A DNA stretch of 59,259 nt from a bacterium (GTDB lineage Bacteria > Patescibacteriota > Minisyncoccia > UBA6257 > WO2-44-18): NCBI GenBank assembly GCA_023244815.1, contig JAHFLQ010000004.1, forward strand, positions 1 through 59,259, in the 5' to 3' direction. Shown here piece after piece: positions 137 to 56,785 of the stretch (its first letter is position 1; each line of letters starts with the position of its first letter). The notes under the pieces are model-generated. The model was not told the DNA's origin. It saw nothing but the letters and a program-made list of their open reading frames with translations, and ran no database searches. The position numbers and the translations under genes were made by a program.

Positions 137-165
137 TTGACAAGCCTTACAGGCTAGTATAGTCT
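137..165 (+). promoter_or_regulatory. sigma70-type promoter for ORF 193..669
   Basis: TTGACA (137-142), 17-bp spacer, TAGTCT (160-165); SD GGAGG at 183-187. Confidence 0.7.
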
Positions 166-192
166 GACAATGGTTCATTGAAGGAGGTTCAG

Positions 193-669
193 ATGAGGGC
201 TGTGCTGAGGAGTGTGTTGTTCGGGATTAGTGGGGGCATAATTGGCATCGCTATAATGCTTTTAGTTCACTACGGCTTTACTGTCGACACCGTGAAAACT
301 GGCAGAACTGGCAGAGCTAGCCTGGAATTGCCGCTTATTGACACGATGGTTTCCATTGTGGAGGACGGTGCGGTTCGATTTGCAGTTTTTGACTATGACA
401 AAAAGGACATTTGCTATTTTTATGTCCCGATGGAAAATGTGAATGTTCTCAAAAGAAGTGACGGCAACGGCCACACATCGGTGATATTCAAAAACCAAAG
501 CCCGCACGGTCTAAACGACAAGTACAAAGACGCTACCATTCTTGCACCATCTGTGGAAGACGTTATTGAATGGAGCATCTGGCTAAAAGAGATTCAAACA
601 AGCAACCAAGAATACCAAGAGTCAAAAAAGAAATTTTCCCCGCGTCGTGTTTTACCGCCTAATAAGTAA
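193..669 (+). CDS. membrane-anchored hypothetical protein, paralog 1 of 3 (C-terminal PRRVLPPN motif)
   Basis: ATG 193 after GGAGG (track start TTG 178 lies upstream of the SD); N-terminal hydrophobic segment; shares RxDG, YTS/HTS, A-x-IL-x-P, W-x2-W/Y-LK and PRRVLPPN motifs with the next two ORFs. Confidence 0.85.
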   Translation: MRAVLRSVLFGISGGIIGIAIMLLVHYGFTVDTVKTGRTGRASLELPLIDTMVSIVEDGAVRFAVFDYDKKDICYFYVPMENVNVLKRSDGNGHTSVIFKNQSPHGLNDKYKDATILAPSVEDVIEWSIWLKEIQTSNQEYQESKKKFSPRRVLPPNK

Positions 670-678
670 ACTAACTAG

Positions 679-752
679 CCCCGCTACATAAGCGGGGTTT
701 TTGTTTTGGTTGACTTTGATTGGCGGGTGTTATAGGCTAACAACGGTTCATT
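679..752 (+). repeat. 74-bp terminator+promoter module, copy 1
   Basis: Identical to 1205-1278; hairpin CCCCGC-tacataa-GCGGGG plus T-tract, then TTGACT (710-715)-17-TAGGCT (733-738). Confidence 0.95.
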
Positions 753-765
753 GAAGGAGGAACGT

Positions 766-1191
766 ATGGGCAGAAAGTGGCAACTTGTTTGGGTCATCTT
801 GCTGGTTGTCTATGTTGCGTTCTTTGGTTGGTTGTTGGCCCCTGGGTTTTTGAAGCCCGACAAGGAATTGCCGATGTTGAGAGCGAACTTTTTTTCGGCT
901 GATGGGGACACATGGGACATTCGCGCTATTCTTGATGGAAAAGAGAAATATTTCTCAGTACCCATAAATAATTTATCTGTCCAATTACGCAACGATGGAC
1001 AGCCGTATACCTCAATCAAGCTTATTAATTCGCTTCATCCGAGTGACTGGAGCTACAAAGCGGCGGTTATTCTGGCGCCAACACCGGATGATCGCGCTGA
1101 TTGGGAAAATTACTTAAAAGCAAGAAAGGAAGCCCACAAGGAATATCAAGATTCAAAGCTTGTGCCGCGCAGAGTTTTACCGCCTAATTAA
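766..1191 (+). CDS. membrane-anchored hypothetical protein, paralog 2 of 3
   Basis: ATG 766 after AAGGAGG; N-terminal TM segment; ends VPRRVLPPN. Confidence 0.85.
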   Translation: MGRKWQLVWVILLVVYVAFFGWLLAPGFLKPDKELPMLRANFFSADGDTWDIRAILDGKEKYFSVPINNLSVQLRNDGQPYTSIKLINSLHPSDWSYKAAVILAPTPDDRADWENYLKARKEAHKEYQDSKLVPRRVLPPN

Positions 1192-1204
1192 ATAAACTAG
1201 CTAA

Positions 1205-1278
1205 CCCCGCTACATAAGCGGGGTTTTTGTTTTGGTTGACTTTGATTGGCGGGTGTTATAGGCTAACAACGGTTCATT
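1205..1278 (+). repeat. 74-bp terminator+promoter module, copy 2
   Basis: Identical to 679-752. Confidence 0.95.
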
Positions 1279-1302
1279 TACGGTTTATTTAAGGAGGTTT
1301 TT

Positions 1303-1767
1303 GTGAAGCTGTGGCTGATCCCGTTGGCACTTGTTTTACTCCTCGGTGTTTGCATTTATGGTGTGTACAATTCTGATAAGCCAACTGATGAGCCAACTTA
1401 TCCGCCCGGCGAAGACCCGCAAACTTTCAACCTTTCAGCTGCTTGGCCCTGGTACGGCTGCGTTGAGTTTTCGACCATCGAAGTTAATCATAGTGGCGAT
1501 CCTTGGAAGCTAATCGTTGATTTGAAGAAGATTGACGTGAAAGCAAGAAGTGATGGACAGTTATATACCAGCGCAACTTTTTTTAAACACAGGCCACCCT
1601 ACGATACTTTCAAGTATCGGCCAGCCTATGAATCCGCGACTATTTTGGTGCCAGCGGAAGATGTTGAGAGTTGGAATCGCTGGATTAAGAAAGAGCTTGT
1701 AGCGGAACAAGCAGCAGAGACAAGAAGGCGAGCAGACTTTCTCCCGCACCGGTTTTTACCAAGATAG
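1303..1767 (+). CDS. membrane-anchored hypothetical protein, paralog 3 of 3
   Basis: GTG after AAGGAGG (1291-1297); N-terminal TM/signal; RSDGQLYTS, ATILVP and PHRFLPR match the paralog motifs. Confidence 0.8.
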   Translation: MKLWLIPLALVLLLGVCIYGVYNSDKPTDEPTYPPGEDPQTFNLSAAWPWYGCVEFSTIEVNHSGDPWKLIVDLKKIDVKARSDGQLYTSATFFKHRPPYDTFKYRPAYESATILVPAEDVESWNRWIKKELVAEQAAETRRRADFLPHRFLPR

Positions 1768-1805
1768 TAAACTAGCTAACCCCGCTACATAAGCGGGGTT
1801 TTGTT
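1768..1805 (+). terminator. third, terminator-only copy of the module
   Basis: TAAACTAGCTAACCCCGCTACATAAGCGGGGTTTTGTT matches 1193-1231 except one T; followed by a different promoter TTGACT (1814-1819)-17-TAATCT. Confidence 0.9.
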
Positions 1806-1870
1806 ACGGACATTTGACTTATTTAATTATATATGTTAATCTCTTTTCAGAATATTGAAAGGAGAAAGCG

Positions 1871-2260
1871 ATGGACAGAGTCCCAGAAACGGACGAAGAG
1901 AAGGAGTGGGCCAACGATGTTTTCGCTGACTTATTGCTCGATGCGGTGAAGCGTCTTACTACCCCAGATCGTTGGGTCACGATTCTTCTTAAGTTTGAGA
2001 AGAAGATACAAGAAGAATCGGGAGCAATTCGTCCGCTTACCAGCTCCGCTCGTGAAAAAAGACACGAAGAAGTGAGGACCATTTTCCAACCTTGGAGGGA
2101 TGCCGAAGTGCCGGAATTTAGAGCACCCACCATCATCACGGAAATGCAGATTCGTGATGCGCTCTTTAAAAAGCTTGAAGAGCTGGTGCCAAAGAAGCAT
2201 TGGAGATTAGCCGTAGCGACTTTTAACGAACACGTTCGGCAAGTGCTGGAATTCTCCTAG
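1871..2260 (+). CDS. hypothetical protein (129 aa, helical)
   Basis: ATG with SD AAAGGAG, own promoter and downstream terminator; no recognisable motif. Confidence 0.75.
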   Translation: MDRVPETDEEKEWANDVFADLLLDAVKRLTTPDRWVTILLKFEKKIQEESGAIRPLTSSAREKRHEEVRTIFQPWRDAEVPEFRAPTIITEMQIRDALFKKLEELVPKKHWRLAVATFNEHVRQVLEFS

Positions 2261-2270
2261 CAGTATTGAT

Positions 2271-2296
2271 CCTCCGCTTGGTGCGGAGGGTTTTTA
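2271..2296 (+). terminator. intrinsic terminator
   Basis: CCTCCGC/GCGGAGG stem followed by T6. Confidence 0.8.
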
Positions 2297-2360
2297 TTTG
2301 CGATTGGCAAATTAAATTATCCGTGGTATTTTTTGGCTAGGACATTGAAGGAGAAATTTG

Positions 2361-2642
2361 ATGGCGAAGATCATCAAGCCAGGTAAAAAGAAGAGAACCA
2401 GCGGTCCGTGGATTGGCAAGAAAATAAAATGCACGGAGTGCGGATGCTGCTTTACATTGGAGAAGGGTGATCGAGTAAGAGAAACTTTTCACAGTATTAT
2501 GGCCAGGTCAGTTCGTTCGGCGGGCCTAGGTATGTCAACTACTTATAGACGTACGATACCTCTGGGCATATTTGTTTTTAACACGACCTGTCCTTATTGC
2601 GGGGATGGGTTTGAGTTCAGATGCAAAGGAGACGTGCGGTGA
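2361..2642 (+). CDS. small Zn-ribbon-like hypothetical protein
   Basis: CTECGC and CPYCG (two CxxC pairs); SD AAGGAG; promoter TTGGCA-17-TATTTT upstream. Confidence 0.7.
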   Translation: MAKIIKPGKKKRTSGPWIGKKIKCTECGCCFTLEKGDRVRETFHSIMARSVRSAGLGMSTTYRRTIPLGIFVFNTTCPYCGDGFEFRCKGDVR

Positions 2643-2724
2643 AAGTTTTTAAATGGCTAGACTGTTTTTTTCTTAAGATTGCTAAGTTCTTACACTTGGA
2701 CTAATATCGTGTGAAAAAAAATTA

Positions 2725-2751
2725 TCCTCGCAAAACCAGCGAGGACTTTTT
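2725..2751 (+). terminator. intrinsic terminator
   Basis: TCCTCGC/GCGAGGA stem plus T-rich tail. Confidence 0.7.
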
Positions 2752-2818
2752 ATTTACTGTACAAATTTAATAGTTGTGTTATCTTAGTCGCAGCACGTTG
2801 ATTTATGGGAGCATTAGC

Positions 2819-4084
2819 ATGTTGGGCCTAGTAATCAATCTTACCTTTCTTGTATCGGTCACCTTTTTTGTCTGTTTTTTAGCGGTTGCCACTTATCGTG
2901 TTGTTTGCGATTCAGAAGAAGTAAAAAATAAGGAAAAACGAGCAAAGCTACTCAAGCCTATTGAAGGCGTCTTTAATCCAAAAGAAGAGTTGATTAGAAT
3001 TCGCCAAACGCCCAAATCGGATCGCAGACAAAAACTGAATGAGTACAAGAAAAAATTAGCCAATCAAATAGCCGGATTAGCTATGGTTCAAACAGAAGTT
3101 ATTCAGGCCATTAGGAAAAATCCAGACAGCTCGCCTAAAGAGCTGATAGAAATGGCAAGGAGTTTAGGCGCAGGGTTTGGAATGAGCAAGAAGCAGTTCT
3201 ATTCGGCCAAAAAGATCTTGCAAAAGTATTGCATAAGACGCGCGAAAATAAGAAAGGCAAGAAGAAGAAGGTATCCTGACGATAAACGAATTTATCGGGC
3301 TGCATTTGGCGAAAATCCATCCAGCGCTGTCAGAGTCATAGAAAGTCCGTTCGTGCTTTATTTTTGTTGCGCGAATTTAGACGACTATGTCCGGATTTAC
3401 TTTTCTGATGCAGGCCCAACGTATCGGAATAAAAATGCAGAGAAAATGAATAAATCCGGTGGCGTATATAAGCCCCAGCTTGTAGTGTTCGGCGCTAAGG
3501 GGATAGTTGCGGCTGAAAAATCAAATGCTGGCCGCTTTAGTCGTGGCGTGTCTCCGCGCGTTTACAAACACGAAGAACAGCACGCCATCAATGCGCTTGT
3601 TGGAAGCAAAACACCGGAAAATTTTCATGAGGAATCCATACCCTACGGTCCAATTGAGCCCCTAACTCTGAAGCTAAAAAGATTTATATGCTCTAGGTGT
3701 CGTATGGTGGAGGCGCAAGCGCATGACGAGTTGCTGGCTTTCTTTACCTGCCCATCGGACGAGGTGGACGAAGTCTTCAGGTGGCTAACCAACACAGCGG
3801 CAGAAGGTGGGTCTTATGATTACTTAGACGAGGAAAGGAAATCACTCTTGGCGTATTTTGATGAGAATGGTGTTTGCTACTACCGGCAAATAGCCAAGGA
3901 AGTAGTTACTAAGGTTCTCCGAGACGAATATCGCGAACTGATTCGTACCGGCCTGAATGCCTTTCAACAGCTCTTAGGGCTTGGTTTTTCCAGAGAAGAG
4001 GCGATTGCTATTCTGGGTCATGAACCGCTAAGGCGATGGAGGAAGCTGGCTAATAGGCTTGCCGATACCGTTAAATCAAATTAA
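2819..4084 (+). CDS. membrane-anchored protein with HExxH motif (putative zincin-like metalloprotease)
   Basis: ATG 2819 after GGAG; N-terminal TM; KHEEQHAIN motif and downstream HDELLAF. Confidence 0.7.
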   Translation: MLGLVINLTFLVSVTFFVCFLAVATYRVVCDSEEVKNKEKRAKLLKPIEGVFNPKEELIRIRQTPKSDRRQKLNEYKKKLANQIAGLAMVQTEVIQAIRKNPDSSPKELIEMARSLGAGFGMSKKQFYSAKKILQKYCIRRAKIRKARRRRYPDDKRIYRAAFGENPSSAVRVIESPFVLYFCCANLDDYVRIYFSDAGPTYRNKNAEKMNKSGGVYKPQLVVFGAKGIVAAEKSNAGRFSRGVSPRVYKHEEQHAINALVGSKTPENFHEESIPYGPIEPLTLKLKRFICSRCRMVEAQAHDELLAFFTCPSDEVDEVFRWLTNTAAEGGSYDYLDEERKSLLAYFDENGVCYYRQIAKEVVTKVLRDEYRELIRTGLNAFQQLLGLGFSREEAIAILGHEPLRRWRKLANRLADTVKSN

Positions 4085-4086
4085 AA

Positions 4087-4110
4087 CCCCGCACAAGCGG
4101 GGGATTTTTT
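4087..4110 (+). terminator. intrinsic terminator
   Basis: CCCCGC-acaa-GCGGGG followed by T-tract, 2 nt after the stop. Confidence 0.85.
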
Positions 4111-4166
4111 ATTTCTGTACAAATTTTAAAGATTATGTTATTTTGGGCACAGTACCTTAACTCTTT

Positions 4167-4895
4167 ATGGAGGTGCGCTTGAAAGATTTAAAGATTTTCC
4201 AAAAGCTGATTGGTTACGAATTCAAGAACCTGAATTTGTTAGAAGAGGCGCTGACGCATAGTTCCTATCCGAACGAACACAAAGATTGGCCCTACAAATC
4301 AAATGAGAGGTTGGAGATGTTGGGTGATTCGGTTCTAGAGCTTGCGGCTACCGACGAGCTATTTAGAAAATTTCCTAAGTTCGCAGAAGGAGATTTAACT
4401 GCCGCTCGGAGCGCTATGGTTAATAACAAAACCCTGTCTAAGATTGCCGAAAAGCTCAACATCGCGGATTGGATATTTGTATCACGCGGTGAAGCTAAGA
4501 GTTCTGAAAAGCCGCGGAACGCTATGGCGGTGAGGGCACTCGAAGCAATTATCGGCGCCATCTATATGGATGCCGGCCACGACATTGCTAAAAAGTTTGT
4601 ACAGGAGCGCGTCCTACGTCAACTTATGAATTACATGGCCTTACTTGGCGGCGGATCCTATCGTGACGCGAAAAGTTATCTTCAAGAAAAGATGCAATCA
4701 GAAAAGGGGATTACATCAACATACCGGACGTTAAAAGAAACAGGACCAGAAAATGAAAAGGTATTTGTGGTGGGCGTTTATGCAGATAGCGAACTGCTAG
4801 GTATGGGGTCCGGTTCTTCCAAGAAAGAAGCGGAACAATGTGCCGCAAAGCATGCCCTTGATCAACTTAGCGCCAAAAAGGAGGCGATGAGATGA
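4167..4895 (+). CDS. rnc: ribonuclease III (divergent)
   Basis: NERLEMLGDSVL signature, LEAIIGAIYMD, C-terminal dsRBD (DAKSYLQE...GSSKKEAEQ); the real start may be TTG 4179 after GGAGG. Confidence 0.92.
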   Translation: MEVRLKDLKIFQKLIGYEFKNLNLLEEALTHSSYPNEHKDWPYKSNERLEMLGDSVLELAATDELFRKFPKFAEGDLTAARSAMVNNKTLSKIAEKLNIADWIFVSRGEAKSSEKPRNAMAVRALEAIIGAIYMDAGHDIAKKFVQERVLRQLMNYMALLGGGSYRDAKSYLQEKMQSEKGITSTYRTLKETGPENEKVFVVGVYADSELLGMGSGSSKKEAEQCAAKHALDQLSAKKEAMR

Positions 4896-5830
4896 AACTA
4901 AGCAAAAAGCTGAACATATTAGAAATGTACTGCTTAGATCTGGAAAAATTTGAAAGAATTTCACCACAAGAAGAAAAAAGGCTAATTGCGGCGATTAGCA
5001 AGGCTCAGAAAGACAACAATCAGCAGCTGGCGATCCGACTTCGTAATGAGCTCGTGGAGATTAATTTAAGATTGGCGCTGATGGTGGGTAAAAGATTCGC
5101 TCGGTATCTTGATATTCGATCGAAAAGTGTGGATGAGTTAGACCTTATCCAAGAAGCAAATCTCGGATTAATCAAGGCAGCTGAATCATTCAATCCAAAA
5201 AGAGGGTTTCGGTTTTCTACTTACGCCTATTCTGTTATAGAGGGTTACGTAAAAAATTTTGTTCGTGACCGTCTTAGATTTATTCGGGTTCCTGCTGATT
5301 GCCAGAGAATGGTTTTCAGGGCGCGTGAAGCGTCGGTTGCCGATAATGGTCGTACGCCTACTTTGCAGGAAATATCTGAAGCGATGAAGATTTCGAAGGA
5401 AGACGCAATGCTTCTCACGGCCATAATTAACACCCGTGTATCGTCCTTGGACACGGAGATTGCTGATGGCATGAAGCTTGTAAATAAAGTTGCTTCCAGG
5501 CGTCTTTCTAGTAGTCAGGTGCTTGAAGCAAAGGAAGCACTGTCGGAAATTTTCCAAGCTATGGGTGGACTACCAGAAGAAGTAGCCAAAGTATCAACTT
5601 TGAAGGAATACCAGATATTTTTTCATCGATACGGCCTTGACGGAAGCCACCAATTTAAAGATACTACAGAAATTGGCAGACGGTTTCGCATAACAAATGA
5701 AAGGGTTCGTCAGATTATTAATGAGGTTTGGAAAAAACTGAAAGAAGCACGCCTTTGGTCTGGCGAAAGTAAACTTTGCGAGTTTCTTAGTCAGTTTGAT
5801 AAACTCGAAGGTATAATTGCCGCAAATTAA
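4892..5830 (+). CDS. sigma-70 family RNA polymerase sigma factor (RpoD/RpoS-like fold, degenerate region 2.3-2.4)
   Basis: DLIQEANLGLIKAAESFNPKRGFRFSTYA (region 2), PTLQEISEAM (region 3), EIGRRFRITNERVRQI (region 4.2); ATGA overlap with rnc. Confidence 0.88.
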   Translation: MKLSKKLNILEMYCLDLEKFERISPQEEKRLIAAISKAQKDNNQQLAIRLRNELVEINLRLALMVGKRFARYLDIRSKSVDELDLIQEANLGLIKAAESFNPKRGFRFSTYAYSVIEGYVKNFVRDRLRFIRVPADCQRMVFRAREASVADNGRTPTLQEISEAMKISKEDAMLLTAIINTRVSSLDTEIADGMKLVNKVASRRLSSSQVLEAKEALSEIFQAMGGLPEEVAKVSTLKEYQIFFHRYGLDGSHQFKDTTEIGRRFRITNERVRQIINEVWKKLKEARLWSGESKLCEFLSQFDKLEGIIAAN

Positions 5831-5857
5831 AATCCCGCAATTGATTGCGGGATTTTT
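5831..5857 (+). terminator. intrinsic terminator
   Basis: AATCCCGCAA/TTGCGGGATT 10-bp stem plus T-tract directly after the stop. Confidence 0.85.
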
Positions 5858-5910
5858 AATCGACAAGAAATGCCTTGTGGGGCAACCGGTCCCGTTTTTA
5901 TTTTAACGGG

Positions 5911-6186: not shown

Positions 6187-6276
6187 TGCCCAGCTCCTAA
6201 AAACTTTCTAAAAGAAACTTTGCTTAATATACTACATTCAAAATAAATATAAAAGAGGCCAATTAAAAAACCGCGT

Positions 6277-13282: not shown

Positions 13283-13858
13283 CTACTCTTTTGATTTTTC
13301 CATCCTCTCCACATATTCTCCAGTTTCGGTGTTTACTCGCACGATATCGCCCGTATTAACGAAAAGAGGAGTGGTGACGACGGCGCCAGTTTCCAAGGTT
13401 ACTGCTTTGCCGCCGCCGGAAGCGGTATCGCCTTTGAATCCCGGGGGTGCCTCCTTGACCACCAGGTCAACTTTAATTGGCGGTTTCACGCTGATGATCT
13501 TGTCGCCGAATTTGTACGCCATTACCAGCGTGTTGGATTTCATGAATTTTCCCGGTGTGCCGATCTGTTCTTCGGTAAGAAAAAAACGGTTGGCCGGATT
13601 GTCTTTGGCGCAGAACCAATACTGCCCTTTTGTGTTGTAGAGATATTTTATTTCTTCTTTGGTCATATCCGCCTCCTCAAAACTTTCACTGGAATGGAAA
13701 GCTTGCTCCACAATTTTGCCGGTAATGAGATTCTTGATCTTGCACTTGGTTACTGGCTTCCTCTGTTGCATGCGTAAAAACTCGTACTCCATTACTTCGT
13801 ACGGCTGTCCATCCATCACGAAAATCGTGCCCTTTTTCAGTTCGTTATAAGCCAACAT
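13283..13858 (-). CDS. efp: elongation factor P
   Basis: ELKKGTIFVMDGQPYEV, KGDTASGGGK, TLETGAVV, PLFVNTGDIVRVNTETGEYVER; ATG 13858. Confidence 0.95.
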   Translation of the reverse strand: MLAYNELKKGTIFVMDGQPYEVMEYEFLRMQQRKPVTKCKIKNLITGKIVEQAFHSSESFEEADMTKEEIKYLYNTKGQYWFCAKDNPANRFFLTEEQIGTPGKFMKSNTLVMAYKFGDKIISVKPPIKVDLVVKEAPPGFKGDTASGGGKAVTLETGAVVTTPLFVNTGDIVRVNTETGEYVERMEKSKE

Positions 13859-13932
13859 GTTGTTGATTTTACATAATTGACCCGTTAAAATCAACTTTTG
13901 CTAAATCGGTTATTTTCTTGTATTCTATCGTC

Positions 13933-14991
13933 ATGCGAAAGTCGAAGGGAAGGGTTTTTGTTGCTATGTCTGGCGGGGTTGATTCCAGTGTCGCTGCAGC
14001 GCTCTTAAAAGAGCGCGGCTTTGACGTGGTTGGCGCGCACTTGAAGTGCTTTAACGTGGACGGATGCGCCGCGCAGGATGCCGAGGACGCCCGCCGTGCC
14101 GCCGAGCACTTAGGCATTCCTTTTTACACGTTTGATTTTGAAAAAGAATACAAAGACCAAGTGGTTCAATATATGATCGATGGCTACAAGAAAGGCATCA
14201 CGCCTAATCCGGACGTGATGTGCAACAAGGAAATTAAATTCGGGCTTTTTTATAAAAAAGCAATGGAAATGGGCGCGGATTTTGTAGCGACCGGGCATTA
14301 TGTCCGGTTGATGAAAAAATCCGGTAAACCAATTCTGGCTATCGCGCGGGATAGCAAGAAAGACCAGTCCTACTTTCTCTGGGCCATCAAGCCCGAACAG
14401 TTAGAGAAGTGTTTGTTCCCGATTGGAAATCTGAAAAAGCCGCAGGTAAGAAAGCTGGCCGTGAAATTTGGCTTACACAACGCCGCTAAAAAAGACTCCC
14501 AGGGCATTTGTTTCCTGGGACAGGTTTCACTGCCGGACTTTTTAAAAAAGTACATCAAGCCGAAAGTCGGCGCGATTGTAAATGAAGCGGGTGAAGTGAT
14601 TGGTGAACATAATGGCGCGCATTTTTATACCATAGGCCAACGGCACGGGTTGAACATCGGCGGATTTGAAAAGCCGCTTTATGTTGCTGATAAAGATATG
14701 AAGAAAAATATTGTTGTCGTCGCCGAAGGTGATGACGCTAAGGCGTTATACAAAAAAGAAGCTGACTTAACGTCTTTAAATATTTTTAATATTGAAATAT
14801 TTAAATCTTGCAAAACCATTCCGGTTTTGGCGCGAGTCCGCTACCGCCAGCCGGTTGCCAAAGCGACCTTTGTGAAAAATAAATTAGTATTCGCGAAGCC
14901 AATGAAGTTTGTCGCCGAAGGTCAGTCAGCGGTGTTTTATGACACGAAGGGCATAATGCTCGGTGGTGGTGTTATTGCCAAAGTGAAGTAG
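13933..14991 (+). CDS. mnmA: tRNA-specific 2-thiouridylase MnmA
   Basis: AMSGGVDSSV, PNPDVMCNKEIKF, ATGHY, KDQSYFL, DSQGICF. Confidence 0.97.
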   Translation: MRKSKGRVFVAMSGGVDSSVAAALLKERGFDVVGAHLKCFNVDGCAAQDAEDARRAAEHLGIPFYTFDFEKEYKDQVVQYMIDGYKKGITPNPDVMCNKEIKFGLFYKKAMEMGADFVATGHYVRLMKKSGKPILAIARDSKKDQSYFLWAIKPEQLEKCLFPIGNLKKPQVRKLAVKFGLHNAAKKDSQGICFLGQVSLPDFLKKYIKPKVGAIVNEAGEVIGEHNGAHFYTIGQRHGLNIGGFEKPLYVADKDMKKNIVVVAEGDDAKALYKKEADLTSLNIFNIEIFKSCKTIPVLARVRYRQPVAKATFVKNKLVFAKPMKFVAEGQSAVFYDTKGIMLGGGVIAKVK

Positions 14992-18879: not shown

Positions 18880-19107
18880 TTGAGTGAGGGACTTGCTATG
18901 GCAATCATCATTATCTTAGTAGTGGTCACCATTGTCGCGAGCTTTTTCTGGGGGCGTTCCAGTAAGATTTATAAGGTTACGAGTGATTGCTTAGAACTAG
19001 TTGAGATCTATAAGGACTGCCTTGGAAAATATGAATTGGCAAACGCGAAGTCTCGGGAAGTAATAGAGATGCAAAAAAAACAATCGCGACATATAAACAG
19101 ATACTAA
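18880..19107 (+). CDS. small membrane-anchored coiled-coil protein (possibly frameshifted; -1 frame stays open to 19175)
   Basis: N-terminal TM; A8 run at 19073-19080; terminator 19184-19210. Confidence 0.6.
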   Translation: MSEGLAMAIIIILVVVTIVASFFWGRSSKIYKVTSDCLELVEIYKDCLGKYELANAKSREVIEMQKKQSRHINRY

Positions 19108-19241
19108 AGAATGGGGTGGGTGGGGATTACAATCATGGTAAAAAGCACCCTGAAGACGAACATGACTTTACCTAAAGACTTCTAATCTGCCACTGAAGTG
19201 GCAGATTTTTATTTTTAGTTTCTTGTGATAATATTTTATTC

Positions 19242-22169: not shown

Positions 22170-22260
22170 GATCAATCAAGCGACCCATAACGGGTCGCTT
22201 TTGTTACAATGTTATAATAAAAAGTATCGCGAAAGGTCGCCTCTAATTTTTAAAATTATT

Positions 22261-27076: not shown

Positions 27077-27117
27077 GCCACTAGCCACTAGCGACTTGGC
27101 ACTAGTATACTGAAAGC

Positions 27118-28245: not shown

Positions 28246-28260
28246 ATAAAAAATTCCCGA

Positions 28261-48270: not shown

Positions 48271-48292
48271 TTGGCCATAGGCATTTAACCGC

Positions 48293-48721
48293 ATGAAGGT
48301 TTTATTACTACAGGATGTAAAAAAGGTAGGAAAGAAACATGAGGTAAAAGAAGTAAGCGACGGCTATGCGCGGAATTTTTTGTTATCTAAAAAGCTGGCA
48401 GTGATCGCTGATGCCGGTGCGATGAAGCTGAAAGCGGGGACAGAAGCTAAGGAGAAAGAGCTGGTGGAACGCTATCAAAACTTTTCGAAAAAACTGGCGA
48501 AAGAGACTCTGGTTTTCAAAGTAAAATCTGGCACGCGCGGGGAAGTTTTTGGTTCGGTAAAGGCGGAACAGATCCAGCAGGCCCTGCAGGAGAAGGGGTT
48601 TGATGGGGCAGAGCCGGAATTGGATAAGCCCATAAAGTCTAGCGGCCAGCATGAGGTTCCGATCAAGTTTCCTCGCGGAATTACGAGTAAAGTATTAGTT
48701 GTTATTGAGCCACAACCCTAA
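48293..48721 (+). CDS. rplI: 50S ribosomal protein L9
   Basis: [14 protein letters not shown]...[11 protein letters not shown]; FGSV. Confidence 0.95.
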
Positions 48722-48980
48722 CGGTCTTGACGTAACGCTTGGTGCGGTCAAAGCGGACCTTCCTACTTTGCGCGAATTTCACCGTGCCGGATTTTGCCGC
48801 GTACAAAGTATCGTCGCCGGCCTGTTTTACATTTTCACCGGCCAAATAATGGCTGCCGCGCTGGCGAATAATAATCTCGCCCGCTTTGACGGCCTCGTTA
48901 TCGTTAATTTTTATACCTAACCGCTTGCTGGCGGAGTCGCGGCCTAATCTGGTAGAGCCGCCTGATTTAGTATGGGCCAT
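48702..48980 (-). CDS. rpmA: 50S ribosomal protein L27
   Basis: [33 protein letters not shown]. Confidence 0.97.
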
Positions 48981-49020
48981 AGTCTAGAATATACGGTAAG
49001 AGTAGGGTATAATCGCTCGG

Positions 49021-49152
49021 ATGTCAAATCTAATAAAGTATTCAGTTATTACGGCAGTCACCCTATTGTTAATTGGGCTCGGCTTTGGGCTCGGCTACCT
49101 TACCCGAGGCGATGTTCAGCGCGCTCCGATTGTTATTGAAAAAGCTAAATAA
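49021..49152 (+). CDS. small membrane protein (43 aa)
   Basis: MSNLIKYSVITAVTLLLIGLGFGLGYLTRGDVQRAPIVIEKAK; TATAAT 7 nt upstream. Confidence 0.6.
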   Translation: MSNLIKYSVITAVTLLLIGLGFGLGYLTRGDVQRAPIVIEKAK

Positions 49153-49219
49153 CGGCCTATTGACAAAATTATATTTTGTGATAGAGTCAAACAGTTATGA
49201 AATGAAAGGTGGTGACTGT

Positions 49220-49381
49220 ATGGGTAACATGCGCAGTCTTGGTCAGCTCCATAAGAAAGGAGCGGCGCGGCGGGCTTGGCGAAACAGACACCGGGAGCAG
49301 TCAGCCATCGCGCGCAAGTTGCGGCGGGCGGTCAGGGAGGACGAGGCGGCGGCGCGCTCAGCCCTTGTGAATCCCCGCTGA
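49220..49381 (+). CDS. small Arg-rich protein (53 aa)
   Basis: Promoter TTGACA (49160)-16-TAGAGT, SD AAAGGTGGTG, downstream terminator 49397-49448. Confidence 0.65.
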   Translation: MGNMRSLGQLHKKGAARRAWRNRHREQSAIARKLRRAVREDEAAARSALVNPR

Positions 49382-49448: not shown

Positions 49449-50729
49449 TTAGCCCAGCCGGTCGTTTTGAATAAAAATCCAGAGTCCCCTTAGCCAGGCT
49501 TTGATGGCTTTCCAAAATGGGAGAATCATCCGCAAATAATTTATTTCCACCAAGATTTTTAAGGCCCATCCCCCAAACCCCCAAATAACAATCGGACCAA
49601 GTTTGGCAATGGCCCACTTGCCGCCGATCGGAATTATATAAGGATATTCCATCGGACGGTATTGCCAGTGATCTTTTCGCCCCTGGATATCGCAGATGAT
49701 ATTGTGGGCGACTATTTTTGCCTGAGACATAGCCGCGCGGGCAACGCCGGGAATAGGACGGCCGCCTTGATCATAAAAGCAAACTGCGTCGCCGATCGCG
49801 TAAATTTTCCCGTAGAGCTTCAGATCCGGGCTTTGCGGCAGACATTCCATTTCACCGGCTACCTCGACCCGGCCCCTCTTCTCCAATTTTAGCGGCATAG
49901 TGCCCATTAAGGACGCGGCTTTCACGCCGCCGGCCCAAACCAAGAGATCGTAGGGGAGTTCTCGTTTACCATTTAATAAAATTTTCTCCTGAGCAACCTT
50001 TTCTATCGGGTGATTAGCAATAATTTCCGCACCTAAACTTTTCAAACGTTTTTGAACTCTATTAATAATGGCGGCTGGAAATCCCAATAAGATAGAAGGA
50101 CCGGCTTCGATGATAGTAATTTTGAATTTGCACTGACGATGTTTCTGTTCCTCAATCTCCACTTCCATTTCAGCCAGCCAGCCCTGGAGTTCGCCGGCAA
50201 ATTCCACGCCGGTGGATCCGCCGCCACCGATGACAATCCGGATTTCCTCCTTGCCGGATTGCGCTAACTCTAGAACCCGATCGCGAATTTTCAGAGCATC
50301 CGTAAACCACTTGAGCGGCGCAGAATTTTCTTTCAAGCCAGGTATGTCGAAATAGTTGGTTTCCGCACCGAGCGCCAGAACCAAATAATCAAATTTAATC
50401 ACACCGCTATTTTTTAGATGGACGTCGCCGTCTTTCAAATCCAGCGATTCAATTTCGGCCTGGATAAAGCGGCCGCCGAGTTTTTTAACAATTTTCTCTA
50501 TTGGGAAAGTAACAATGCTTTTGAGATTGACATAGTCAGCGGTTTCTTTGGAGGTGGTAGCAACTTCGTAAAGCGTCGGGGTATAAGTATGGTAGGCGTT
50601 ACGATCAACTACAACAACCTGGCAGGAATTTTCCATTCCGGAACGGCGGATATATTTCCCCAGCAACATAGCGGCCCGCAAACCGCCGAATCCGGCACCG
50701 AGAATCACAATCTGCTTCTTTTGTTCCAT
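49449..50729 (-). CDS. type II NADH dehydrogenase-like FAD-dependent oxidoreductase
   Basis: VILGAGFGG, DYLVLALGA, IGGGGSTGVEFAGEL, YAIGDA. Confidence 0.9.
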   Translation of the reverse strand: MEQKKQIVILGAGFGGLRAAMLLGKYIRRSGMENSCQVVVVDRNAYHTYTPTLYEVATTSKETADYVNLKSIVTFPIEKIVKKLGGRFIQAEIESLDLKDGDVHLKNSGVIKFDYLVLALGAETNYFDIPGLKENSAPLKWFTDALKIRDRVLELAQSGKEEIRIVIGGGGSTGVEFAGELQGWLAEMEVEIEEQKHRQCKFKITIIEAGPSILLGFPAAIINRVQKRLKSLGAEIIANHPIEKVAQEKILLNGKRELPYDLLVWAGGVKAASLMGTMPLKLEKRGRVEVAGEMECLPQSPDLKLYGKIYAIGDAVCFYDQGGRPIPGVARAAMSQAKIVAHNIICDIQGRKDHWQYRPMEYPYIIPIGGKWAIAKLGPIVIWGFGGWALKILVEINYLRMILPFWKAIKAWLRGLWIFIQNDRLG

Positions 50730-50770
50730 AACTTACATTTTATCACGCTGTGATATAATTTTATAAACAC

Positions 50771-51775: not shown

Positions 51776-51776
51776 T

Positions 51777-53262: not shown

Positions 53263-53279
53263 CTTTATTGCTCATTGTC

Positions 53280-53541: not shown

Positions 53542-53604
53542 TCTCCGGTTCGTAACATTAGCGGGTGGTTAACCAGATTTGCGCTAAAATTATTTATATA
53601 AATA

Positions 53605-53643
53605 AAAAAGCCCGTTCGCGACACGAATGTCGGAACGGGCTTT
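53605..53643 (-). terminator. intrinsic terminator with inner mini-hairpin
   Basis: AAGCCCGTTC/GAACGGGCTT stem enclosing CGACA-cgaa-TGTCG; U-tract on the minus strand. Confidence 0.75.
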
Positions 53644-53647
53644 GGGG

Positions 53648-53923
53648 TTACTTGCGCTTGGTCACGGCCAGGTACCTAGCTCCCAAACCGTCAGGGTAAT
53701 TGGCGACTAGAGAGACCAATTCGTAGCCCTTTGCAAGCAGATCGTTCAGCGCTTGCTGAAGAGCCGTTGTTAGAGAGTGGCCGGAGTTGCTGCCAGTTTC
53801 GATCGTGATGGTCGGCTTGAGGCTCGTCCCGTAGTCGTACATTTTAGGACGCTCTCGCACCGGCCTCACTTCAACAAAGCTACCATGCGCGATCGTCATG
53901 TCTATTTCGAAAAGCTGATACAT
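53648..53923 (-). CDS. hypothetical protein (91 aa)
   Basis: SD GAAGGAGG; ends LLAKGYELVS...YLAVTKR (DUF4177-like pattern, weak). Confidence 0.7.
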   Translation of the reverse strand: MYQLFEIDMTIAHGSFVEVRPVRERPKMYDYGTSLKPTITIETGSNSGHSLTTALQQALNDLLAKGYELVSLVANYPDGLGARYLAVTKRK

Positions 53924-53935
53924 GGGATTCCTCCT

Positions 53936-54526
53936 TCACTTCAGAATCTTCACCTCCAGCCACCGCACACCCCATTGGCGTGCCGCACTGTGGCTGGCCA
54001 TGCGGACATCGATGTGAACGATGCCGCGTTTGGCGTCCTGCCGCATCGCGCCCCCAGTGTCGTCCACCTCGCGGAGGCCGACACTGGGGATTTCCAGCAG
54101 GGTGTGATAGGGGAGCAGTTTCGGATCCGCCGCCACCCCGTCACAAACATTGGCGTTTTTACCAATGGACGTCCTGCCGGCGCCACTGAACTTTTCGCAG
54201 CAGATCTCGCAAGTGCAGTATGCCGTTACCAGCATCCGCATCGTCCGATACCGTCTTACCTCGACAGGCGCTGGATCAGCGCGTCGAGGAGCCGGCGCCT
54301 CTGCCTTCTCCACAGCCACCACGGACGAAACCGCATTACGACTGGCCGCTGAAGCTTCATTTGAACCCCCACGCTTCCAGTTTGCGCAAATCCCATTAGA
54401 AGTAGGCCGCCCCGAGGTGGCCGTAGCCACTGCCTGTTCACAGGCAGGGCGACTTCTAACGGGACAAACCCCCAAAACCCCTGCTCCTATCAGCAGCGCA
54501 AGGCCGACGATAGGAGATGCCCGCAT
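53936..54526 (-). CDS. secreted 3D-domain (MltA-like) cell-wall-acting protein
   Basis: ATG 54526 after GAGGAGG; signal peptide; VTAYC...GVAADPKLLP...VDDTGGAM...HIDV (three Asp); promoter TTGACA-17-TATGTT. Confidence 0.85.
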   Translation of the reverse strand: MRASPIVGLALLIGAGVLGVCPVRSRPACEQAVATATSGRPTSNGICANWKRGGSNEASAASRNAVSSVVAVEKAEAPAPRRADPAPVEVRRYRTMRMLVTAYCTCEICCEKFSGAGRTSIGKNANVCDGVAADPKLLPYHTLLEIPSVGLREVDDTGGAMRQDAKRGIVHIDVRMASHSAARQWGVRWLEVKILK

Positions 54527-54649
54527 AAATCCTCCTCTTTCTTCAAAGTACAAAAAACACCTCAATAACATAGCACAAACAAAAACTCCTGTCAATAGAC
54601 AGGAGTTTTTGATGCCCGCCTGCCGCGCTATGCGCAGCATTGCGGGCAG

Positions 54650-55003
54650 GGCTGGCAATCTATAAGCGGGATTCTGTGATGCCGGCAATATTGCCGAGCA
54701 CGACGTCCATTTATCTGGGATCAACATCGCTGTTAACCTCTAGCGGCACTCTCCTCTTGGAGTACGGCCTTGCACCCAGTAAGGAATTTAGCCGTTTCAC
54801 CCCAACCTTTTATCCCTATAGTTGAGTTAAGCCGTCTAGCTTGGGATAGGGCTTTTCGGGCCGTTTCCAACCCGAACGTTTCTGTTCGCACCTCTACATT
54901 GCTGTTGGCAGTTGTTAACTGCTACTTTCTCCGACTTGCGCCGGAGAGGAGTCCCGACTTTCCTGTCCGATGAACATCAGACCGGGCGTCTGGATTACCA
55001 GCC
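54650..55003 (-). ncRNA. rnpB: RNase P RNA
   Basis: P1 GGCTGGTAATC/GATTGCCAGCC; CAGGAAAGTCGGG and ACAGAATCCCGCTTAT (covarying P4); GGTGAAACGG, TGCAAG and CCCAGATAAATG conserved blocks. Confidence 0.93.
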
Positions 55004-55009
55004 AAAAGC

Positions 55010-55060
55010 AGCGTAACACAAAGAACTTAACTTGACAAGCAGACAAGCTTCTGTTACATT
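55010..55060. promoter_or_regulatory. two divergent promoters with overlapping -35 boxes
   Basis: Plus strand: TTGACA 55032-37, 17 bp, TACATT 55055-60. Minus strand: TTGTCA (55038-33), 17 bp, TACGCT (55015-10). Confidence 0.7.
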
Positions 55061-55090
55061 GCGGTTAGTGCTAGTTGAGGAGGTGGCTTA

Positions 55091-55432
55091 ATGGGCGGAA
55101 TGATTCTGGAAGTCGAGTGCGTGAAGAGAGTCTGTCCCCCGACCTGCCCGGCCAACGAAACCAAGAATCGCGAAGATTGCCGGTGTACGACAAGCGCCAA
55201 GATCATCGCCCACGTAGTATTGGTTGCGAAATGGGATGGCATCCGGCGGTACCGGGCATGGTTCAAGCCGAGCCGAACCAACTCCGGGCCTCCTAAAATC
55301 TTCAATAAGGAGCGATTTAACGAGCAGGGGTGCTTCGAGGTGGCAAACATTAATATTCCGGACGGCATTTACTTACAAATGCGCGCCAAAGCAGCGGCAA
55401 TTATCTTGTCGGGATCAGCGGCCGGGTCGTAA
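55091..55432 (+). CDS. Cys-rich hypothetical protein (113 aa)
   Basis: SD GAGGAGG; own promoter; terminator CCGGGTC-gtaa-GACCCGG overlapping the stop. Confidence 0.65.
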   Translation: MGGMILEVECVKRVCPPTCPANETKNREDCRCTTSAKIIAHVVLVAKWDGIRRYRAWFKPSRTNSGPPKIFNKERFNEQGCFEVANINIPDGIYLQMRAKAAAIILSGSAAGS

Positions 55433-55486
55433 GACCCGGTTTTTTATTGTGGATAGTTTATTAGAGAGTTGTGTTAAAATAATACA

Positions 55487-56785
55487 ATGGTAACCAAAAC
55501 CGCCAAGAAAGAAGCGGATGTCAAAAAAAAGATTCAAAAAGAAGAGAGCCGGCCAGGGACAGCCAGACCCTCGGAGGGGGACGCGGTATCGAAAGAACTC
55601 ACAAAAGGAGGCGAAGAAATTTCTATTATTAAATTAGTGGACAATCTGGTGGAATCCGCCTTTCATTCTCGCGCTTCCGATATTCATATAGACCCGGCGG
55701 AAAAACAGATTTCCGTCCGATTCAGGATTGATGGCGTGCTTCACGATTTTTATACCTTTCCCAAAGAAATCCAGTCCGAAGTCATCAGCCGCGTTAAAGT
55801 TCTTTCCGGTTTGCGCACCGACGAGCACCAGGCCGCGCAAGACGGCCGCTTCCGTCTGACTTTCAGTGGTGTCAATGTGGACGTGCGGGTTTCCGTCGCG
55901 CCAACTTATTACGGTGAAAATACCGTCATGCGTTTGCTGGCTGATCAGGCGGAATCCTACACTCTCGAAACCCTCGGCTTTCAAGGGCGCGATCTGGACG
56001 TGGTAAAGAGAAACATTACAAAGCCCTACGGGATGCTGCTCGCTACCGGACCGACCGGCTCCGGCAAGACCACCACGCTTTACACGATTTTGAAAATGCT
56101 CAACACCAAAGAAGTTTCCATTATTACTATCGAAGATCCGGTGGAATACGCGATTGGAGGTATTGAACAGATTCAGGTGAACACGCGCACTGGACTCACT
56201 TTTGCTAGCGGGCTGCGTTCTATTTTGCGGCAAGACCCGAATATTGTAATGGTTGGTGAGATTCGCGACGAGGAAGCCGCCGGTATCGCGGTCAATGCCG
56301 CCTTGACCGGTCACCTTTTGCTCTCCACCCTTCATACTAATGACGCCGCGACGACTTTGCCGCGCCTGCTGGACATGGGCATCGAACCGTTTTTGATCGC
56401 CTCCACGGTGAATATCGCTATCGGCCAACGTTTGGTAAGAAAAATCTGCGACGGGTGTAAGACCAAAAAAGATATTACCGCCGATGAGCTGAAGAGCCTC
56501 GCTACGGTTTTGCCGGTTAAGGTGCTGGACGATTACAGAACTTTTTATTACGGCGCCGGTTGCGCCCAGTGCGACCATAGCGGCTATAAGGGACGCATCG
56601 GCATTCACGAAGTAATGGAAATTGACGACGAAGTGCGCCTAGCCCTGATGAAAGGCGCCGACGCGAGCGAAATTAAAAAAATTGCCATCAAAAATGGCAT
56701 GACAACGATGGTGGAAGACGGTTTCCGCAAGGCGATTGAGGGAGTTACTACTATTGAGGAAATTCTTCGTGTAATTCACGATTAG
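55487..56785 (+). CDS. pilB: type IV pilus/T2SS assembly ATPase PilB/GspE
   Basis: RASDIHIDP, RFRIDGVL, GPTGSGKTTTLY, TIEDPVEY, LRQDPNIVMVGEIRD, STLHTNDA, CxxC...CxxC. Confidence 0.93.
   Translation: MVTKTAKKEADVKKKIQKEESRPGTARPSEGDAVSKELTKGGEEISIIKLVDNLVESAFHSRASDIHIDPAEKQISVRFRIDGVLHDFYTFPKEIQSEVISRVKVLSGLRTDEHQAAQDGRFRLTFSGVNVDVRVSVAPTYYGENTVMRLLADQAESYTLETLGFQGRDLDVVKRNITKPYGMLLATGPTGSGKTTTLYTILKMLNTKEVSIITIEDPVEYAIGGIEQIQVNTRTGLTFASGLRSILRQDPNIVMVGEIRDEEAAGIAVNAALTGHLLLSTLHTNDAATTLPRLLDMGIEPFLIASTVNIAIGQRLVRKICDGCKTKKDITADELKSLATVLPVKVLDDYRTFYYGAGCAQCDHSGYKGRIGIHEVMEIDDEVRLALMKGADASEIKKIAIKNGMTTMVEDGFRKAIEGVTTIEEILRVIHD

Follow-up and report, generated by a model that had tools for sequence, protein, structure and literature searches.

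Shine-Dalgarno-poor core genes and Shine-Dalgarno-led small genes: evidence for two expression designs in a segment of a Parcubacteria chromosome

Do all genes of one chromosome announce their starts in the same way, or can two designs of promoter and ribosome-binding site (RBS) be maintained side by side for different kinds of gene? The question is raised by contig JAHFLQ010000004.1 (assembly GCA_023244815.1), a groundwater metagenome contig that is part of a Parcubacteria/Paceibacteria chromosome of the candidate phyla radiation (CPR), and of which a stretch of 59 kb with 47-50% G+C (positions 1 to 59,259; hereafter the window) was analysed. A first-pass annotation had proposed that conserved core genes carry a promoter box directly before the start codon and no Shine-Dalgarno (SD) sequence, the core using leaderless initiation, and that orphan genes are plug-in cassettes with their own promoter, SD and terminator. 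We consider it probable that two maintained expression designs are present in this chromosome, namely an SD-less core with start-adjacent promoters and a class of autonomous, SD-led small genes. The split tracks gene conservation, recurs in related genomes and is not simply one between native and imported genes.

CPR genomes are annotated almost wholly by automatic gene callers tuned to SD sequences or to no motif. Start calls across this very large, uncultured radiation would gain from knowing that the core may be leaderless or have short leaders, and a simple sequence rule (a strong SD plus an own promoter and terminator) would pick out the small-protein repertoire. Further, the split joins the reduced CPR ribosome, with its variable anti-SD and missing bS21, to SD-independent initiation and to a hypervariable repertoire of small proteins with a presumed role in host interaction. 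The finding is incremental, not categorical, as each of the two initiation modes is well known, and so is the occurrence of both in a single genome.

Start signals of the two gene classes in the window

We compared 16 orphan or accessory genes with the 42 others (58 in total) at curated start codons, counting an SD as strong when its duplex with the anti-SD had a free energy (dG) of -5.5 kcal/mol or lower. Strong pairing was found for 15/16 orphan/accessory genes and 7/42 others (Fisher p = 8e-8), with a bimodal dG distribution, and the association persisted with paralogues collapsed (p = 5e-7) and without the left island described below (7/8 vs 5/40, p = 8e-5). The purine-rich motif, which could pair with CCUCC, is separated from the start codon by 4-9 nt, its spacing peaking at N5-8 (Nx denoting x nucleotides between two elements or between an element and the start codon). 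The seven non-orphans with strong pairing are rnc, the sigma-70-family gene, g15032, def, the permease gene, dhh (weak) and prfB, the apparent SD of the last being the acceptor stem of tRNA-Thr. Predicted terminators were assigned by an automated rule to 10/16 orphans and 5/42 others (p = 2.5e-4), and by eye to 13/16 orphans, and a -10 box at N26-35 was present in 12/16 orphans and 14/42 other genes.

Upstream of the curated non-orphan starts, TANNNT at N6-7 occupies 11 of 84 gene-positions, compared with a background of 3.6% (p = 2e-4). The same spacing emerged from an annotation-free test of all ATGs that open at least 100 codons and have an in-frame stop within 25 codons upstream, which in the window plus its flanks gave 13 cases where 3.8 were expected (p = 1.7e-4). 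When all 58 genes are tallied, 15 are leaderless-type, 7 have a -10 box at N9-17 and no SD, 17 are leadered with an SD and 3 leadered without one; 2 are operon-internal with an SD, 11 operon-internal with neither box nor SD, and 3 fall elsewhere. The proposal that the core uses leaderless initiation was accordingly narrowed: it fits about 15 of the 42 non-orphans (~40% of first genes), and does not cover the 7 short-leader genes, the 11 operon-internal genes lacking both box and SD, or rnc, the sigma-70-family gene, def and g15032, which are SD-led. That conserved genes are SD-poor, operon-internal ones included, is a more general statement than that the core is leaderless.

Seven start-adjacent boxes had been quoted in the first-pass annotation, and six proved exact when re-read and recomputed. 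These belong to mnmA (13921..14991, plus strand; TATTCT at 13921-13926, N6, ATG 13933), efp (13283..13894, minus; TTGATT-N17-TAAAAT, the box at 13871-13866, N7, ATG 13858), aspS (19226..20621, plus; TGA-TAATAT with a TGn extension, box at 19229-19234, N7, ATG 19242), the weakly DivIC-like g27118 (27106..27375, plus; TATACT at 27106-27111, N6, ATG), ndh (49449..50742, minus; TGA-TAAAAT, box at 50742-50737, N7, ATG 50729) and pilB (55472..56785, plus; TGT-TAAAAT, box at 55475-55480, N6, ATG 55487). None of the six has an SD (anti-SD duplex dG at least -1.5 kcal/mol), as had been stated. The seventh, TATAAT-N6 before a gene at 46445, does not exist: the true gene there encodes a 2'-5' RNA ligase on the plus strand with its start at 46464, preceded by TAGAAT-N10 or TATAAC-N4. 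A long antisense open reading frame (ORF) at 46179-46865 was rejected as spurious.

Additional boxes precede a sigma-r4/HARE-HTH gene (sigr4; from 9064, plus; TTGACA-N18-TAATAT, box at 9088-9093, N8, ATG 9102), a DUF8128 gene (plus; TATAAT at 10093-10098, N6, GTG 10105, the box overlapping the stop codon of the sigma-r4 gene), the surA-like gene at 27375 (N6) and ctpA at 47050 (N7), and a divergent leaderless-type pair at 48702..49152, in which rpmA on the minus strand (TATATT-N7, ATG 48980) faces away from a 43-aa ORF on the plus strand (49021-49152; TATAAT-N7-ATG). All 15 leaderless-type genes have a dG of at least -3.9 kcal/mol and 13 of them at least -1.5, the two lower values being those of the DUF8128 gene (-2.8) and the ORF at 49021 (-3.9). 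A -35 element at 16-18 nt is also present for efp (TTGATT-N17), sigr4 (TTGACA-N18) and pgk, and the intergenic spaces of efp/mnmA, ndh/pgk and rpmA/49021, only 40-75 nt long, hold no alternative candidate promoter. The start of efp is backed by the register of the Pfam EFP_N domain, and that of mnmA by its Pfam domain register; both agree with independent gene calls. An automatic gene caller placed the efp start at a TTG 36 nt upstream of the real one, and missed or shortened several of the cassettes.

The ten orphan genes quoted in support of the second design, which start at 193, 766, 1303, 1871, 2361, 6759 (minus), 21471, 49220, 54526 (minus) and 55091, all have the claimed SD, with dG values from -5.6 to -12.8 kcal/mol. 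Their promoters had been described as near-consensus with 16-17 nt spacers; a -10 box does lie 27-33 nt upstream in all ten, and an exact TTGACA -35 in five (193, 6759, 49220, 54526, 55091), and the spacer has to be corrected to 15 nt for 193, 766 and 1303. The terminators said to follow the stop codons directly were recovered as predicted GC hairpins with a T-run after 193, 766, 1303, 1871, 2819, 6759, 21471 and 55091, and lie 77-83 nt downstream of the stop for 18898 and 2361. The sharing of one terminator by 54526 and 53923 likewise held, the two forming a two-gene unit whose common terminator lies at ~53605-53640. To these we add four SD-led units absent from the earlier list, at 2819, 6186 (minus), 18898 and 28503 (minus).

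Recurrence in related genomes and comparison with known systems

The nearest aspartyl-tRNA synthetases (AspS) are those of uncultured Patescibacteria metagenome-assembled genomes (MAGs), with 82-87% identity in three of the related loci (L003, L004, L005), 78% in one 'Candidatus Harrisonbacteria' MAG and ~60% in 'Yanofskybacteria' and others. The gene order from secD to sod is kept in the five closest loci. A box at N6-8 before aspS is kept in 14 of 17 genomes with at least 58% AspS identity and in 2 of 16 more distant ones; further, its position is kept in orthologues of g27118 (N6 in 5/5), efp (4/6) and mnmA (3/4), and the DUF8128 layout TATAAT-N6/7-GTG in 3/3, including L004 and L006. The flanks of orthologues with a kept box layout cannot be aligned. 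The annotation-free test gave 12 boxes against 5.6 expected in five close relatives and 53 against 16 in fourteen loci at ~60% AspS identity (p = 2.5e-13). Loci at that identity are nearly without SD signal, as are the core genes of the window. TGn precedes 24 of 78 hexamers at N6-7 and 40 of 393 elsewhere (p = 1.3e-5), which points to a promoter property and not a translational one.

For replication of both classes we used 33 Patescibacteria loci (~565 kb). A strong SD at N3-9 opens 43 non-nested ORFs of at least 50 aa in these loci, compared with 5-10 for non-SD-like decoys and 20 for the SD-like GGTGG set, and TANNNT-N6/7-ATG opens 119 ORFs. The SD-led ORFs are shorter (median 125 aa vs 227 aa for leaderless-type ones), have a homologue in another genome's locus less frequently (8/43 vs 58/104, p = 4.5e-5; 1/29 vs 27/55 among ORFs of at most 200 aa, p = 8e-6) and more frequently have a terminator within 60 nt past the stop (15/43 vs 9/119, p = 6e-5). 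About 13 of the 43 SD-led proteins have a Pfam match, as against 120 families over 104 leaderless-type proteins, whose matches comprise FtsW, DivIC, TyrS/TrpS, LepA, EF-P, RuvA, MnmA and similar; eight strong-SD ORFs of the close relatives L004, L005 and L006, examined singly, gave no significant Pfam match. The earlier proposal hinged on a difference between conserved and orphan genes in SD and terminator frequency, and both frequencies do differ, in the window and in the 33 related loci, that is, over loci and not whole genomes.

A TANNNT box ~12 nt before the start codon is the published hallmark of leaderless genes in bacteria, and in low-GC genomes it takes a TG-extended form (Zheng et al. 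2011, PMC3160421). The boxes described here resemble those of the leaderless genes in that survey (Mycobacterium, Deinococcus, Streptomyces) in that TANNNT ends 6-8 nt before ATG or GTG without an SD, in the TGn-extended -10 with a weak -35, and in a position conserved among orthologues. They differ in belonging to a CPR/Parcubacteria lineage and in that many boxes lie 9-17 nt away, predicting leaders that are very short but not absent. In genomes of GeneMarkS-2 group C, reported mainly from Actinobacteria and Deinococcus-Thermus, the start model is dual: first genes have a promoter box, and the others an SD RBS (PMC6028130). Our window is similar in mixing leaderless first genes (~40%) with SD-led leadered ones and in having both signals 6-8 nt from the start. 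It departs from that scheme in its operon-internal genes, which use an RBS there, whereas 11/13 have no SD here, and in an SD use concentrated in small genome-specific genes; the remaining genes thus do not all carry an SD, as the leadered rnc, def, g15032 and the orphans mostly do and most operon-internal ones do not. The design corresponds to the known leaderless-plus-SD dual type, which is undescribed for CPR in the literature that we searched, where we found no report of leaderless genes in CPR/Patescibacteria. Unusual here are the SD-less operon-internal core genes and the concentration of SD use in small lineage-specific genes.

Competing explanations of the split

From the observed motifs, spacings, statistics, synteny and conservation we infer leaderless initiation in this organism. 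Core genes would be driven by -10-only or TGn-extended -10 promoters whose distance from the start codon is 5-8 nt in ~15 genes and 9-17 nt in ~7. If the boxes are active promoters, housekeeping-sigma RNA polymerase, starting 6-8 nt past the -10 box, would begin at the A or G of the core start codon or a few bases before it, and the core mRNA, beginning at or a few bases before AUG/GUG, would be translated without an SD. A 70S ribosome or a 30S-IF2 complex would bind the 5'-terminal AUG with no need for an SD, a binding mode established for leaderless mRNAs of other bacteria (PMC9031893, PMC8459731). Operon-internal core genes, which lie 0-12 nt past the preceding stop or overlap it, would presumably be read by coupling or re-initiation. 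The second class comprises small, fast-evolving, mostly Pfam-less and mostly monocistronic genes, many of whose products begin with a membrane or signal segment. Each is built of a predicted sigma-70-type -35/-10 promoter, a 20-30-nt leader, a strong AAGGAGG-like SD at a distance of 4-8 nt from the start codon and a putative terminator of GC hairpin and T-run. Provided that the 16S rRNA carries CCUCC, these genes would require SD:anti-SD pairing; they sit in recurrent variable slots between core genes, and their hairpins, if they terminate transcription, would insulate them from the tightly packed core, whose 40-75-nt intergenic spaces hold just the next promoter.

Several observations weigh against this account of two maintained designs. 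In the window alone and with uncurated starts, the N6-7 TANNNT peak is indistinguishable from noise, and even after curation the strict box spacing is seen in only ~1/3 of non-orphan genes. The start codon is ambiguous for rnc (4167/4179), the gene at 21471 (21471/21576), the DUF8128 gene (10105/10150) and g15032 (15032/15176). Among the 43 SD-led ORFs of the relatives, 5-10 are expected by chance, and the status of a gene as conserved was judged by Pfam matches and a limited set of loci, not whole genomes. Neither the window nor ~90 other loci examined contain a 16S rRNA gene, and the contigs of three metatranscriptomes from the same study, compared with positions 40000-59259, yielded nothing of this organism beyond a conserved stretch of rnpB: the matches are short and 90-95% identical, one at 54757-54803 (rnpB) and one at 56045-56079, where pilB has a conserved motif. 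Further, the anti-SD motif is present in only 48% of Parcubacteria 16S genes and bS21 is frequently lost (Tsurumaki et al. 2022, PMC9297842), in a study in which mRNA start signals were not analysed. A core nearly without SDs fits such a clade with marginal SD pairing and reduced ribosomes; unlike those SD-poor Parcubacteria, this genome retains, as do its close relatives, a well-defined set of SDs that are strong, have the correct spacing and recur on orthologues, which argues that an anti-SD is present here.

The best-surviving alternative is that the leaderless core is native and that phages, mobile elements or SD-using donors recently supplied the SD-led cassettes, complete with promoter, SD and terminator. 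We regard this reading, which agrees with the earlier view of plug-in units from phage or other donors, as unlikely. It draws on the left orphan cluster (193-6759), which lies between a tRNA gene (1..71, minus; Rfam tRNA, 78 bits), its left boundary, and secD. Across that tRNA, the source contig upstream of window position 1 (L085 1-8009) encodes a KAP-family NTPase, a type I restriction-modification system (hsdR, hsdM) and a large serine recombinase, the gene for the last ending 122 nt outside window position 1. The G+C content at third codon positions (GC3) of the cluster is 0.38-0.52, compared with 0.53+-0.05 for the core. Elsewhere, unrelated SD-led terminated ORFs occupy the same variable slots across genomes, namely between the metallo-beta-lactamase gene and aspS, between ndk and the permease gene or lepA, between surA and prfB, and after the 3D-domain gene. 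The first of these slots is only 14 nt long in L025; in the window, where it holds o18898, it measures 405 nt, and in L004, where two SD-led ORFs with terminators fill it, 757 nt. Neither o18898 nor the gene at 21471 is found at the syntenic site in close relatives, SD-led ORFs seldom have homologues elsewhere (o2819 only 3 distant ones among 5.8e9 proteins), and the products of 21471 (polynucleotide kinase) and 54526 (L-Ala-D-Glu peptidase) match PHROG families.

Other cassettes tell against import. Those at 54526 and 55091, on either side of rnpB, recur in relatives with 48-68% identity, in synteny and led by an SD, and are therefore best regarded as inherited; o54526, o55091, g15032 and o22261 are all kept in relatives, the last with a homologue in L025, and g15032 orthologues retain an SD-like element. 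The order pilC-pilB-small ORF-rnpB-3D gene-small ORF-rnhN-dhh-pgk, with an SD-led 3D gene, is common to L087 (from the same MAG as L003) and L089/L090, and in L087 the o55091 homologue stands in the same place, 48% identical, SD-led and likewise equipped with both a TTGACA promoter and a terminator. The 212 homologues of the o54526 product go by the name of Paceibacterota or Nealsonbacteria 3D-domain proteins, and the family is widespread in Paceibacteria. We rejected its high G+C content as a mark of transfer, as high values are a trait of the family (0.60-0.63 in three genomes), and composition more generally as a test of horizontal transfer, as mean GC3 is equal in both classes (p = 0.5), which differ only in spread. 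Among IMG/VR viral contigs we found no relatives of o2819, o54526 or o1871; 8 of 10 tested proteins had no PHROG match; and PADLOC gave no defence-system match to the cassettes apart from weak P-loop ones. Contigs of other samples that carry these genes are 100% identical, with no presence/absence polymorphism seen at strain level. The genes at 193, 766 and 1303 arose through duplication within the genome.

In comparison with tRNA-gene genomic islands, the left cluster is alike in its position beside a tRNA and a serine recombinase, with restriction-modification on the far side, in its small genes of no assigned function and in a slightly atypical GC3; it differs in containing rnc and a sigma factor and no phage or conjugation genes, and the cassettes outside it are scattered singly, without a recombinase nearby. 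Integron gene cassettes were also considered and rejected: every unit comes with a promoter of its own, what recurs after the ORFs is a terminator hairpin, and there is neither an attC site nor an integron integrase (intI). The plug-in idea is thus upheld in part by the variable slots and the recombinase-flanked island, and fails for the inherited rnpB-flanking cassettes and for want of phage relatives in our searches. The SDs kept on orthologues argue that they are read by this clade's ribosome and are not merely the scar of a donor. As far as these comparisons reach, the SD grammar is a maintained design for one gene class, whose members are partly turned over and partly inherited.

A second alternative, which we find very doubtful, takes the start-adjacent boxes for A/T-rich, unstructured initiation regions as in SD-poor Bacteroidota, the core being leadered without SDs and transcribed from further upstream. 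It accounts for the operon-internal core genes that are likewise SD-less and A/T-rich upstream, such as secF (aacaaaaaaATG) and sod (aataaacttaATG), and for several core genes whose -10-like hexamer is at N9-17 instead of N6-7; from the SD-less operon-internal genes it follows that an SD-independent mechanism acting on leadered mRNA must exist here. It does not predict that TANNNT is phased, with a peak at N6-7 instead of a general A/T enrichment, nor that the TGn extension is three times commoner at hexamers of that spacing than elsewhere, and the -35 elements of efp, sigr4 and pgk, together with the short spaces that leave no other promoter candidate, favour start-adjacent promoters. Chance or annotation bias (TANNNT being common in A/T-rich DNA, starts chosen to fit and SDs used to pick orphan starts) is largely refuted and extremely improbable, for it could appeal to the noisy window-only profile, the ambiguous starts and the paralogy of 3/10 orphans, and is met by annotation-free tests that are significant in the window with flanks and strongly so in relatives, by box positions kept in orthologues, by decoys opening 5-10 ORFs against 43 for the SD motif, by associations that outlast collapsing of paralogues and exclusion of the left island, and by independently fixed starts of efp and mnmA.

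Building on the two-design account, one may speculate that in this clade the type of initiation signal marks the gene class: the core, operon-internal genes included, would have dispensed with SD pairing, and the anti-SD would be kept mainly for fast-turnover small secreted or membrane proteins, as a switch set by ribosome state, a class lost from sub-clades without anti-SD. We think this improbable. If it were true, one change of ribosome state, for which the availability of the 16S 3' tail and the presence of bS21, two features that vary among Parcubacteria (PMC9297842), are candidates, could raise or lower the whole accessory set, and the sub-clades reported to have no anti-SD would be those that lost the SD-led gene class.

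Individual cassettes and other features of the window

The left cluster opens with three cassettes on the plus strand that are tandem paralogues with one duplicated regulatory module and, owing to this common module, are not independent cases. The first, o193 (137..707), has TTGACA (137-142)-N15-TATAGT (158-163), SD AAGGAGG at 181-187, a coding sequence at 193-669 and a terminator at 677-699 followed by a T-run. In o766 (710..1233) the elements are TTGACT (710-715), TATAGG with TGn (731-736), an SD at 754-760, coding sequence 766-1191 and terminator 1203-1225, and o1303 (1236..1805) has the same promoter module, an SD at 1291-1297, a GTG start at 1303, a coding sequence to 1767 and a terminator at ~1779-1799. 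The 95-nt module of terminator, promoter and 5' untranslated region (663-757 vs 1189-1283, and 158-187) is 95% identical between the three, and the proteins are 31-36% identical, which suggests concerted evolution of, or strong selection on, the regulatory module and diversification of the coding sequence. The proteins end in a conserved PRRVLPPN tail, and an AlphaFold model of the family (pLDDT 68) predicts a membrane helix at the N terminus, a small beta domain of five strands and a long helix at the C terminus; compared with the PDB it gave no significant match (best E-value 0.12, weak PH-like hits).

Next on the plus strand follow o1871 (1815..2300; TTGACT-N17-TAATCT, SD AAGGAG, coding sequence 1871-2260, terminator 2268-2292), whose product has no Pfam, PHROG or PADLOC match, and o2361 (2304..2753; TTGGCA-N17-TATTTT at 2304-2332, SD AAGGAG, coding sequence 2361-2642 for a Cys-rich, zinc-ribbon-like protein, terminator 2725-2745). 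The true orphan o2819 (2746..4110; SD GGGAG, coding sequence 2819-4084, 421 aa, terminator 4087-4102) has its promoter module in common with rnc; this 39-nt module of terminator tail and promoter (2735-2773 vs 4093-4131, 77% identity) reads CTGTACAAATTT...TGTTATnTT. The rnc and sigma-70-family genes (4104..5860, plus; rnc from TTG 4179 with SD GGAGGTG, the sigma gene from 4892 with SD AAGGAGG, terminator after 5830) are conserved families with SD grammar and a GC3 of 0.47 and 0.38, low like that of the adjoining orphans, and may be part of the same island as the orphan cluster. On the minus strand, o6186 (5911-6186) has the SD AGGAG, and o6759 (6277-6759) a GTG start, the SD AAAGGA, the promoter TTGACA-N17-TACATT at 6815-6787 and a terminator at ~6262-6290.

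Beyond the left cluster, the 69-aa o18898 (18898..19207, plus; SD GAGGGA, terminator 19184-19207) fills the slot before aspS, and the slot between ndk and the permease gene holds an AAA_33/zeta-like kinase gene (21471..22200, plus; SD AAGGAGG-N4-GTG 21471, alternative ATG 21576, terminator 22178-22200). The 80-aa o28503 (28250..28503, minus), between tRNA-Gly and tRNA-Thr, has an extended -10 TGTGTTATATT, SD AAAGGAG-N5-ATG and a terminator at 28250-28274. The o49220 cassette (49160..49370, plus; TTGACA-N16-TAGAGT at 49160-49187, SD AAAGGTGGTGA, coding sequence 49220-49370, G+C 0.66) has no terminator that we could find downstream.

Around rnpB, the unit of o54526 and o53923 (53605..54595, minus; promoter TTGACA-N17-TATGTT at 54595-54567) comprises a 3D-domain, wall hydrolase-like gene (53936-54526, SD AGGAGG) and o53923 (53648-53923, SD AAGGAGG). 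The RNase P RNA gene rnpB (class A; 54648..55001, minus, with a terminator at 54580-54611) matches RF00010 at 94.5 bits (E = 6e-29), slightly below the Rfam gathering score of 100, and is found at the corresponding place in L087 and L089. The loop of the rnpB terminator hairpin contains the -35 element (TTGACA) of the 54526 promoter, and a naive 263-aa ORF at 53936-54727 would overlap rnpB, from which 54526 was taken as the true start. On the other side, o55091 (55032..55441, plus) has TTGACA-N17-TACATT at 55032-55060, SD GAGGAGGTG, a coding sequence at 55091-55432 and a terminator at 55420-55441.

Many of these SDs are preceded by TTGA, giving TTGAA(A)GGAG, at 176-187, 749-760, 1855-1863, 2346-2354, 15015-15025 and, on the minus strand, 6771-6780 and 28510-28520, as well as in L005 and L006. 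This longer motif, counted by hand, may be due to more extensive pairing with a 16S tail that would end in ...CCUCCUUUCAA; the automated alignment for an extended SD logo, made to infer the 16S tail, was too noisy to confirm it.

The gene set of the window is typical for CPR/Patescibacteria and includes rnc, the sigma-70-family gene, secDF, efp, mnmA, comEC, ndk and lepA, an archaeal-type aspS, a short RF2-like prfB, ftsEX, a P-type ATPase gene and sod; def-fmt, ligT, ctpA, rplI, rpmA, ndh, pgk, pilBC and a gene for a 2223-aa surface protein are also present. The AspS (19242-20621) is of the archaeal, non-discriminating type, its best matches beyond Patescibacteria being DPANN archaea (Woesearchaeota, Nanoarchaeota, Pacearchaeota) with 46-50% identity.

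With 241-249 aa, the RF2-like release factor is short; about the first 90 positions of the PCRF domain are missing from it, in the window (28590-29397) as in L005 (7998-8790) and L018 (18310-19133). The prfB start follows the 3' end of tRNA-Thr(CGU) by 6 nt in the window, 5 nt in L005 and 0 nt in L018, so that tRNA 3' processing could leave prfB with an mRNA that has no leader or almost none; in L025 the two are separated by a GNAT gene.

One heptamer forms two opposite tandem arrays, (AGCCACT)x4.3 at 27076-27105, just before the -10 box of g27118, and (CTAGTGG)x4.4 at 29436-29466. They are directly upstream of the DivIC-like g27118 and of ftsE, at the place of a -35, are not present before g27118 in relatives, and could be a putative regulator-binding array for division genes. 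A Cas2-like/PaaX_M gene and the metallo-beta-lactamase gene have a near-identical promoter-proximal CGGCCnnTAAATGTTATAAA (17345-17375 and 17937-17967), followed by 5 nt and ATG.

A 229-nt ORF-free gap (11380-11607) separates the DUF8128 gene from a gene resembling a type IV secretion system (T4SS) coupling protein, compared with 11-27 nt in L004, L006 and L025, and no promoter box or SD precedes the ATG of the latter at 11608. In two other regions, 22471-22938 (~470 nt) and 53263-53647 (~385 nt), there is neither a convincing ORF nor a match to Rfam; they may contain unannotated RNAs or gene remnants. Finally, the 2223-aa surface protein gene has a 32-nt SD-less leader (36022-36053) with a perfect hairpin, ATGGGC-CCAATA-GCCCAT.

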